Origin: Candidatus Puniceispirillum sp.
GTDB lineage: Bacteria > Pseudomonadota > Alphaproteobacteria > Caedimonadales > UBA1908
Direction: 5' to 3'
NCBI GenBank assembly: GCA_013822015.1
Contig: PNJU01000002.1
Span: 128,500-192,499, forward strand
DNA: 64,000 nucleotides
This document shows, piece after piece, positions 18,986 through 20,740 of the stretch. How positions within the stretch are numbered: the first letter of the stretch is position 1; each line of letters opens with the position of its first letter. The notes below the pieces were generated by a model. That model had not been told where the DNA came from, did no database searches, and saw only the letters and a program-made list of their open reading frames with translations. The position numbers and the translations under genes are program-made.

Positions 18986-19480
18986 ATGGTCCAACTAAAC
19001 AAAAAAAAGATTCTATCAAAACCTGGGGCGCTTGCGCCCCTTTTTGATAGGCTTGTTGATCTTGAGCCTGAGTTAAGTCAGGAGCTCGACCCTTTTGCTT
19101 CCTTAAGTGCCCCGGCACTTCAAGAATCCATTGCCCACGAGCTTTCCTTGGTCTTCAACACGCGGCCCACGGCCAAGCGCCTTGCAGGGGAAGACATCCC
19201 TGACAGCGTCTCTGATTACGCCCTGCCCACTTTTTTTGGCCTGGCTGACTTTTCATGGTTGGACGCGGGCAAAGACTTCTATCTTCATCGTATTATTCGC
19301 CTTTTAGAGGACGTAATTCGCCACTATGAGCCACGCCTTGCCAATCCAAAGGTGAAGGTACGCGAGAGGGACCGCGCCATTTTGGGCCTCCATGTGGACA
19401 TCACGGGCACCATTGATCCCGGCACAGGCATCCAGCAAGTCAATTTCCCCTTAAGTATCGCCAATCTTTTCAAAGGGTAG
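18986..19480 (+). CDS. tssE: Type VI secretion baseplate subunit TssE (gp25-like)
   Basis: LFDRLVDLEPE...ESIAHELSLVFNTRP...SVSDYALPTFFGLADFS...IIRLLEDVIRHYEPRLANPKVKV...LGLHVDITG fits the TssE/GPW-gp25 pattern. AGGAGG RBS. Confidence 0.8.
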   Translation: MVQLNKKKILSKPGALAPLFDRLVDLEPELSQELDPFASLSAPALQESIAHELSLVFNTRPTAKRLAGEDIPDSVSDYALPTFFGLADFSWLDAGKDFYLHRIIRLLEDVIRHYEPRLANPKVKVRERDRAILGLHVDITGTIDPGTGIQQVNFPLSIANLFKG

Positions 19481-20048
19481 AGAAAAACGGTGCATCATCT
19501 TGAGGGTCAAACGGCACGTCAAGAAATCTCAACGCAAAAGAGTACCCTCCCTTACCGGGTAATACCACCTCGCCGTGCATTGTCCCTGCCAAAAAGGGCC
19601 CTCCTCCACGCACGAGCACATACTTCTTAAAACTGTTTTTACTGTAAAAAAGACGCGTGTAATCACCGAGCGGCACCTCCATAAGAAGGCGCAACATTGG
19701 CAAAATATCCTCCGCTTTTGTCACCGCATCCATCAGCGTATGTTTTGCGGCCAAAATCTCAAGGCGCTCCACGTGTTGTGCATGGGCGTCATAAGACGTT
19801 AGTGGGCTCAGTGCCATGACGGCCTCACAAAGAACCGTGCAAAATGTCCTTGGGTGTCCCCGCAGTACGTTTCCTGCTTCTGGATAACGCTGGGTGAGAT
19901 ATGCAAGGTGGACATTGATCTTCTCGTCCTGAAAAGCGTGGGGTGCATGCACAGCATCAAGGTCATCCACATCTCCCCAACAAGCAAAAGATGCAAATCC
20001 CTTTGACACCAAAGCCACACACATAATCACTTTAACAATCTGTTTCAT
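19470..20048 (-). CDS. Secreted hypothetical protein, paralog 1 of a tandem pair
   Basis: Signal-like N-terminus. Shares LAYL(T)QRYPEAG, AKHTLMDAVTK, FYSKNSFKK and a terminal APFF with 20180..20740. The 3' end overlaps the tssE 3' end by 11 nt. Confidence 0.6.
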   Translation of the reverse strand: MKQIVKVIMCVALVSKGFASFACWGDVDDLDAVHAPHAFQDEKINVHLAYLTQRYPEAGNVLRGHPRTFCTVLCEAVMALSPLTSYDAHAQHVERLEILAAKHTLMDAVTKAEDILPMLRLLMEVPLGDYTRLFYSKNSFKKYVLVRGGGPFLAGTMHGEVVLPGKGGYSFALRFLDVPFDPQDDAPFFSTL

Positions 20049-20179
20049 TTCTCTTTTTTCTTGTTCATTGACCCGTTGTCAGTCTAGCGATGTTTGACGT
20101 ATGCGTGCAACACATAGCTCTGCACGTCCAGAGGGGGACACATTTACGCGTCTTTTAAGCTGCGCACGGTGTGCAGCGT

Positions 20180-20740
20180 TTAATTCTCCACAAAAAAAGG
20201 CGCCCCTTCATCTGCAGTAGACGGTATGATCGTGCACTGCGTTTCGCAACGCGCATCCCCCACACAAAGTGTCATGGGGATACAGTATGTCCCAACGATG
20301 TAAATCGTAACGCCTTTTCTCTCAAGGGCATTTTTAAAAGTTTTCTTGCTGTAAAAAAAGGTTTCTAAATCATCCAGGGGTGTTTTCATAAAAAGACCAA
20401 GTAAACTGACTACACACTCGGGCTTGACAACGGCGTCAACAAGGGCATGCTTTTGCGCAAGAAATTGAAGGTGACGGGCGTAGAGTTCTTCTTGCTTGTG
20501 CCGCGCCGCTTTATTTCTTGTGAGCTTCTCTCCAAGCTTCTCCCACAGGGATCTCTGGGGCTTTTGAAATACCCCTCCTGCGGCTGGGTAAGTACGCTGC
20601 AGGTAAGCAAGATTGTCGGCGATGCTCTCTTTCAAAGAAAGGGTTGTCTGAGGCTTGCTAAGATCATCCAAATGCTCTTGTGTGGCAAACCCATTGGGCA
20701 CGAGAGCCAGACAAGCCAACACCATTATCAGTCGCGTCAT
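20180..20740 (-). CDS. Secreted hypothetical protein, paralog 2 of a tandem pair
   Basis: Signal MTRLIMVLACLALVPNGFA. Motifs LAYLQRTYPAAG, QKHALVDAVVK, FYSKKTFKN, APFF. Roughly one third identical to paralog 1 by eye. Confidence 0.6.
   Translation of the reverse strand: MTRLIMVLACLALVPNGFATQEHLDDLSKPQTTLSLKESIADNLAYLQRTYPAAGGVFQKPQRSLWEKLGEKLTRNKAARHKQEELYARHLQFLAQKHALVDAVVKPECVVSLLGLFMKTPLDDLETFFYSKKTFKNALERKGVTIYIVGTYCIPMTLCVGDARCETQCTIIPSTADEGAPFFVEN

Follow-up and report, generated by a model that had tools for sequence, protein, structure and literature searches.

A 64,000-nucleotide stretch of DNA (positions 128,500 to 192,499 of contig PNJU01000002.1, here called the window) from an alphaproteobacterial metagenome-assembled genome (MAG) carries two adjacent minus-strand genes, A and B, next to tssE, a type VI secretion system (T6SS) gene. 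A and B are paralogs. They are under purifying selection, evolve rapidly at the protein level, have a restricted distribution, and match no known family or fold. The reading we favor, with about even confidence, is that they encode lineage-specific, fast-evolving proteins exported by the Sec pathway, which would function in the envelope or at the interface with a host, occupy a variable slot beside the T6SS genes, and have no structural part in the T6SS itself.

Paralogy, distribution, and selection of genes A and B

Gene A (19470 to 20048, minus strand) encodes 192 amino acids (aa) in an open reading frame (ORF) that is a 100% match to an NCBI MAG protein (GenBank MBA4117663.1, C0514_02045), and gene B (20180 to 20740, minus strand) encodes 186 aa (MBA4117664.1, C0514_02050). 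The MAG, which bears the label Candidatus Puniceispirillum sp., lists both as "hypothetical proteins" on a contig of 268,666 bp. A first-pass annotation, made from the letters of the window, had reported two adjacent minus-strand ORFs of 192 and 186 aa, and its coordinates agree exactly with the ORF list. In the NCBI record, B has 181 aa and starts at an internal methionine. We prefer the 186-aa start because its M-x-R-L-I sequence is kept in the ortholog P0006.

The same annotation had considered the two genes tandem paralogs, which a pairwise alignment bears out. A and B align end to end over their full length with 31% identity (BLASTP, E = 6e-25), far beyond chance, and are therefore true paralogs. 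The conserved blocks that had been noted were all recovered, four of four in both proteins and in identical order. Block 1 (LAYL...YP.AG) reads LAYLTQRYPEAG in A and LAYLQRTYPAAG in B; block 2 (KH.L.DAV.K) reads AKHTLMDAVTK and QKHALVDAVVK, and block 3 (FYSK..FK) reads FYSKNSFK and FYSKKTFK, respectively. The fourth block, APFF, stands three residues before the end of both proteins. The genes are separated by a 131-nt spacer (20049 to 20179, minus strand) with a short hairpin just after the stop codon of B that is not followed by a T-run.

Relatives of A and B are few. A word-indexed search of 5.8 billion cluster representatives returned near-orthologs of the A type (P0002 and P0003, 76 to 82% identity) and of the B type (P0005 and P0006, 77 to 81% identity) and nothing beyond these. 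An exhaustive HMMER profile search of 1.84 billion representatives clustered at 50% identity yielded only three clusters, namely, those of the A and B types and a diverged singleton, P0007, of 194 aa (E = 2.6e-43). The family profile had no match in 185,579 species genomes (GTDB, one per species), and among the metagenome contigs of the Joint Genome Institute (JGI) it matched only one near-identical locus of the same strain group (L086). No further copies were found in the window or in 86 related loci when all ORFs were searched with hmmsearch --max. In total, about seven distinct sequences make up the family. They all come from close relatives of this MAG, and the family is so far restricted to one small clade of uncultured alphaproteobacteria. 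The suggestion of a candidate new family is supported; the family previously had no name.

P0007, encoded at locus L005, is the positional ortholog of A, with an identity of about 38 to 39%. B is about equally far from A and from P0007 (31 to 32% identity), and the duplication is therefore old; at L005, B was either lost or never present at that site.

Evolutionary rates were obtained as Nei-Gojobori estimates of the ratio of nonsynonymous (dN) to synonymous (dS) substitution rates for ortholog pairs with a dS of 0.4 to 0.6. The window was compared with locus L001 for A, tssBC, tssE, and the gene in the hcp position of the T6SS locus, and with L003/L004 for B and the ankyrin gene upstream of it. 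The dN/dS values of A and B against their orthologs are 0.21 to 0.24 (A, 0.23; B, 0.21 to 0.23), which identifies both as real, constrained, and presumably expressed genes under purifying selection. Their dN values of 0.10 to 0.14 are similar to those of the C terminus of the ankyrin protein (0.09 to 0.10), compared with 0.033 for the hcp-position gene, 0.022 for tssE, and 0.007 for tssBC. Protein-level change in A and B is thus about 3 to 20 times faster than in the T6SS genes. Between the window and L005, tssE and tssBC are 86% and 95% identical, against the 38 to 39% of A.

Predicted export and fold

The first-pass annotation had also described signal-like N termini in both proteins, and a rule-based check of the n, h, and c regions using Kyte-Doolittle (KD) hydropathy agrees. 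In A and B, lysine or arginine close to the start is followed by a 10-residue hydrophobic core with a KD value of 2.8 to 3.2, compared with 0.4 to 1.2 by the same measure in the cytoplasmic neighbors TssE and the hcp-position protein. A cleavage-type site, G-F/V-A/T at residues 19/20, is conserved in every full-length family member. The mature part reaches a maximum 19-residue KD of only 1.0 to 1.7 and has no second hydrophobic segment. The predicted Sec signal peptide of A spans aa 1 to 19 (19992 to 20048, minus strand; core KD, 2.77; site GFA|SFA), with an alternative cleavage after aa 22 (SFA|CWG), and its N terminus, MKQIVKVIMCV.LVSKGFASF, is conserved in L003, L004, and L086. That of B also covers aa 1 to 19 (20684 to 20740, minus strand; site GFA|TQE). 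Judged by these features, every full-length member, A and B included, fits a type I Sec signal peptide. The idea of a lipoprotein was dropped, as there is no conserved lipobox cysteine: VLAC at residue 10 of B lies too early for a lipobox, VIMC in A has a methionine at -1 that is disallowed there, and P0007 has no cysteine at that place.

No family had been recognized for A and B at first reading, and Pfam, NCBIfam, and PADLOC likewise gave only sub-threshold noise for A, B, and their relatives (STAT_linker, E = 0.004; DUF445), with no match to a well-known housekeeping periplasmic family. When the family profile was compared with PDB sequences, nothing scored better than E = 0.46; that hit, a PP2A HEAT-repeat stretch, was rejected as chance. 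An initial AlphaFold2 (AF2) model of A including its signal peptide was unusable, with a predicted local distance difference test score (pLDDT) of 51 and meaningless Foldseek matches. Mature B gave a pLDDT of 78.6 and a predicted template modeling score (pTM) of 0.69. In this model, six helices, one of them long and bearing the KH.L.D motif, are followed by a beta-hairpin, which is cysteine rich in the B type, and then by the APFF tail. Foldseek found no match to it at E ≤ 0.001 in PDB (best E, 0.68; template modeling [TM] score, ≤0.2) or in the viral library BFVD (best E, 0.33). The B model therefore resembles neither a solved T6SS immunity protein nor TssJ. Overall, the sequences define a new family, and neither of the structure libraries searched (PDB and BFVD) contains a match to it.

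Genomic setting of the family

The T6SS module that the first-pass annotation had seen next to A and B holds up with respect to tssE, and a Pfam scan reduces it to three genes. These are a fused tssBC in a single ORF (16391 to 18286, plus strand; TssB at aa 7 to 150 and TssC at aa 161 to 626; PF05591, PF05943, PF18945, TIGR03358, and TIGR03355), the hcp-position gene (18323 to 18943, plus strand; 206 aa; no Pfam, NCBIfam, PADLOC, or PDB match), and, as the last gene of this mini-locus, tssE (18986 to 19480, plus strand), which encodes a gp25-like baseplate subunit (TIGR03357, E = 1e-18, 67.3 bits versus a cutoff of 53.2; PF04965, E = 2.7e-9). The scan covered all standalone ORFs of the window with 150 aa or more, which come to about 50 of the 75 that are listed, the rest lying mostly inside longer ones. 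No other T6SS, VgrG, PAAR, or toxin domain was found in these ORFs, some of which have no Pfam match at all, so that an unrecognized effector may still be encoded elsewhere. Scattered T6SS genes, including a [tssB-tssC-hcp] locus, have been described in Bodocaedibacteraceae, Paracaedibacteraceae, and Caedimonadaceae, as have many symbiont-specific secretory proteins for such endosymbionts (PMC8163844). The closest TssBC relatives of the window include Nucleicultricaceae, Paracaedibacteraceae, and Holosporaceae MAGs.

Two of the mini-locus genes have features of their own. The tssBC fusion, an ORF of 627 to 637 aa, is kept in at least five lineages down to 63% identity (L001, 1722 to 3617; L005, 3086 to 4981; L006, 10001 to 11896; L007, 6490 to 8403; L008, 1634 to 3517). 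All of the more distant matches, which make up 75 of the 80 loci, span about 2.0 to 2.2 kb, versus 1.9 kb here; from these longer spans, tssB and tssC may be separate at those loci. In the literature, a phrase search turned up no account of a natural TssB-TssC fusion. The hcp-position protein has a glycine-rich tail and is conserved in L001, L005, and L006 (77 to 95% identity), and its place is taken in L007 and L008 by proteins of 193 aa. The 206-aa protein may represent a strongly diverged tube protein.

The family is carried by the window and by the loci L001/L002/L086, L003, L004, and L005. Every member found adjoins tssE in a convergent arrangement, so homologs do not occur mostly in genomes without a T6SS. 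L006, L007, and L008 have the fused mini-locus and no family member (by hmmsearch --max, run on every ORF in the 86 loci), even though TssBC of L006 is 86% identical to that of the window, which means that the family does not count among the conserved accessories of the fused-tssBC T6SS. Behind tssE, L006 has an unrelated gene for a 448-aa protein, and L007 has a gene for a leucine-rich repeat (LRR) protein with a weak F-box-like match (9617 to 10651), convergent with tssE. In L008, no ORF of at least 80 aa lies within 400 nt of tssE, and in canonical clusters tssF comes next. These differences mark the position after tssE as a variable slot, which the family entered in one sub-clade.

Genes A and tssE overlap convergently at their 3' ends by 11 nt (19470 to 19480), with the stop codon of A at 19470 to 19472, as had been read from the sequence at first pass. 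The identical overlap is present in L001/L002, L086, and L005. In the window and in L005, the TGA of A sits in the conserved C-terminal codons AAT CTT TTC A (N-L-F) of tssE. The overlap has a simple sequence origin because these codons create the stop of A, and the shared sequence leaves no neutral breakpoint between the two genes, which by itself favors retention of their adjacency. Descent together with the 3' overlap best explains why A stays next to tssE.

It has also been proposed that the convergent overlap lets tssE and A regulate each other by transcriptional interference or antisense RNA. Such coupling would be compatible with any of the roles discussed below, and we regard it as unlikely. 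Conservation of the overlap in three lineages is in its favor, and with no convincing intrinsic terminator on either side, read-through into the opposite gene is plausible. However, the overlap follows from the conserved C-terminal codons of tssE, and compact genomes often contain short convergent overlaps. The idea that a terminator, intrinsic or bidirectional, lies at the overlap was also considered and dropped, as nothing exceeds the expectation from shuffled sequence. Eight terminator-like sites were found between 18200 and 23600, versus 6.2 ± 3.1 expected from shuffles, none of them at the overlap, and folding of the 3' regions does not exceed that of shuffles (z-scores, -0.84, +0.97, and -1.02, the last for the B-A spacer).

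Directly upstream of B, a gene on the same strand (20804 to 22609, minus) encodes a 601-aa protein with a signal-like N terminus and C-terminal ankyrin repeats (Ank_2, E = 4.5e-15); the 400-aa N-terminal region of this protein has no family assignment. It is preceded by a gene for a 196-aa protein that also has a signal-like N terminus and belongs to no family (22710 to 23300, minus strand). Together with A and B, the ankyrin and 196-aa genes thus form a four-gene run on one strand in which all products are predicted to be exported, and the order ank-B-A recurs in L003 and L004. Comparison with hhalign revealed no relation between the family and the ankyrin protein or the 196-aa neighbor; the run therefore did not arise by expansion of a single family. 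Farther away, the window encodes a bona fide F-box+LRR protein of 591 aa (60166 to 61941, minus strand; F-box-like, E = 5.5e-9). Together with the names of related MAGs, such eukaryote-like domains suggest a eukaryote-associated lifestyle.

The genes flanking this region are ordinary (malate dehydrogenase, TrcR, chemoreceptor, aminotransferase, DnaB, and glutamine synthetase), and the guanine-cytosine (GC) content and skew are unremarkable across 19 to 23 kb, for which reason a horizontally acquired island was dismissed. The chemoreceptor (11594 to 13600, plus strand) is a methyl-accepting chemotaxis protein, conserved in L001, with a C-terminal PilZ domain (PF07238, E = 8.8e-6) that would couple chemoreceptor signaling to cyclic di-GMP (c-di-GMP) binding. 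Between its gene and tssBC, the window has a gene for a 675-aa tetratricopeptide repeat (TPR) protein (13918 to 15945, minus strand). The close relative L001 has only about 1 kb with no gene called at this place (3617 to 4638), which indicates an insertion or deletion between near relatives beside the mini-locus. In addition, STAND-type NTPase-TPR proteins of 760 and 796 aa that are 39% identical are encoded in the window (29864 to 32146, plus strand) and in L005 (5299 to 7689). The gene abuts tssBC in L005 and lies 10 kb off on the other side of the mini-locus in the window, indicating a rearrangement around the T6SS block.

Possible roles and relation to known systems

In our preferred reading, A and B would be two diverged copies of a taxonomically restricted gene. 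Its product would be a small Sec-exported protein of about 165 to 170 aa in mature form, probably built of a helical bundle and a C-terminal beta-hairpin and ending in the conserved APFF tail. The four-gene run for exported proteins would fill the variable slot that follows tssE where a mini-locus of a scattered T6SS ends, and the organism would be an uncultured, probably eukaryote-associated alphaproteobacterium. A role in the periplasm, at the cell surface, or at the host interface appears most likely, and A and B would probably not be a structural part of the T6SS. The protein would bind a rapidly changing partner.

Several points weigh against this reading. The export, cellular location, and role of A and B are what we infer from their sequences, export by way of the rule-based check, and a changing partner is suggested by the evolutionary rate alone. 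The presumed host-associated lifestyle is deduced from a small number of eukaryote-like domains and from what related MAGs are called, and ordinary metabolism and a chemoreceptor are encoded in the window as well. Moreover, L005 shares only the block tssBC-hcp-tssE-A with the window. Both flanks of this block are rearranged, the flanking genes of L005 mapping to 43415 to 43975 and 29912 to 32107 of the window, i.e., 24 kb and 10 kb away. The block may thus have been retained in L005 because A is functionally tied to the T6SS, and not simply by descent.

In the first-pass annotation, a pair such as A and B was considered typical of immunity arrays or accessory factors. The pair does adjoin a T6SS gene, but no effector lies nearby and L006, L007, and L008 do without the family. 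As a two-gene periplasmic immunity array, A and B would protect against a periplasm-acting T6SS effector encoded elsewhere, which seems quite unlikely to us. Like periplasmic T6SS immunity proteins of the Tsi/Tai/Tli type, they are small, have signal-like N termini, stand in tandem near T6SS genes, and evolve rapidly, and all known members adjoin T6SS genes. Unlike those proteins, they have no adjacent effector, their neighbors being the convergent tssE and the signal-bearing ankyrin protein, and no VgrG, PAAR, or toxin domain is adjacent or was matched by Pfam in the scanned ORFs of the 64-kb window. T6SS substrates are loaded in the cytoplasm; the same-strand upstream neighbor differs from them in having its own signal-like N terminus. 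A and B also resemble no solved protein in sequence or fold, hence no solved immunity protein, and the family is missing from sister lineages that have the same mini-locus. A lineage-specific periplasmic T6SS accessory, such as a protein that assists the membrane complex or the passage through the cell wall, B being a spare or specialized copy of A, is likewise an unlikely role. It would account for the four-gene block as the sole part common to the window and L005 and for an 11-nt overlap kept across 38% protein identity. However, the overlap removes the neutral breakpoint, so that adjacency is expected without a common function; the family is absent from L006, in spite of its closely related TssBC, as well as from L007 and L008; and evolution 3 to 20 times faster than that of the T6SS proteins is unusual for a structural partner. 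Among known proteins, TssJ comes close; this outer-membrane lipoprotein belongs to the T6SS membrane complex and has a lipobox and a beta-sandwich (transthyretin-like) fold. A and B are similarly small, predicted to be exported, and encoded beside T6SS genes, but they lack the conserved lipobox cysteine, the B model is mainly helical with one beta-hairpin rather than a TssJ-like beta fold, and neither protein matches TssJ in Pfam or NCBIfam.

Alternatively, A and B might act together with the ankyrin protein as host-directed effectors that are exported by Sec and then released through outer-membrane vesicles, a type II-like step, or lysis, a scenario we find rather unlikely. The genes share their strand with that of the signal-bearing ankyrin protein in an order kept in L003 and L004, LRR or F-box-like proteins occur in the same slot in relatives and elsewhere in the window, and the rapid sequence change would fit. 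On the other hand, A and B have no eukaryote-like domain of their own, no outer-membrane route was identified, and L005 keeps the A ortholog without an ankyrin neighbor. In a further reading, the most novel one, which we also hold to be improbable, the family would have a new fold and work in the periplasm with a divergent fused-sheath T6SS, as a protein for immunity, as an adaptor, or as an accessory of the envelope that arose in one clade.

A and B can also be compared with the symbiont-specific hypothetical proteins of Paracaedibacter-like/Holosporales endosymbionts, e.g., Candidatus Bodocaedibacter vickermanii, which are also taxonomically restricted and carry Sec signals, and whose genomes likewise have T6SS genes scattered in small loci such as [tssB-tssC-hcp] (PMC8163844). 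Unlike a homologous family, however, that set is a descriptive category, and no sequence relationship to A and B was found.

As matters stand, A and B add one more family of taxonomically restricted, predicted exported proteins; such families are common and rarely informative alone, and this one would matter more if its link to tssE proved functional. The model of B is reasonably confident and has no solved match, which makes the protein a small but legitimate target for structure determination. To our knowledge, the T6SS of Holosporales-like eukaryote-associated alphaproteobacteria are poorly understood, and their periplasmic and effector components are largely unidentified. If A and B were indeed partners of the fused-sheath apparatus, they would offer a handle on how, in alphaproteobacteria associated with protists, the T6SS gets across the envelope of its own cell or shields it.

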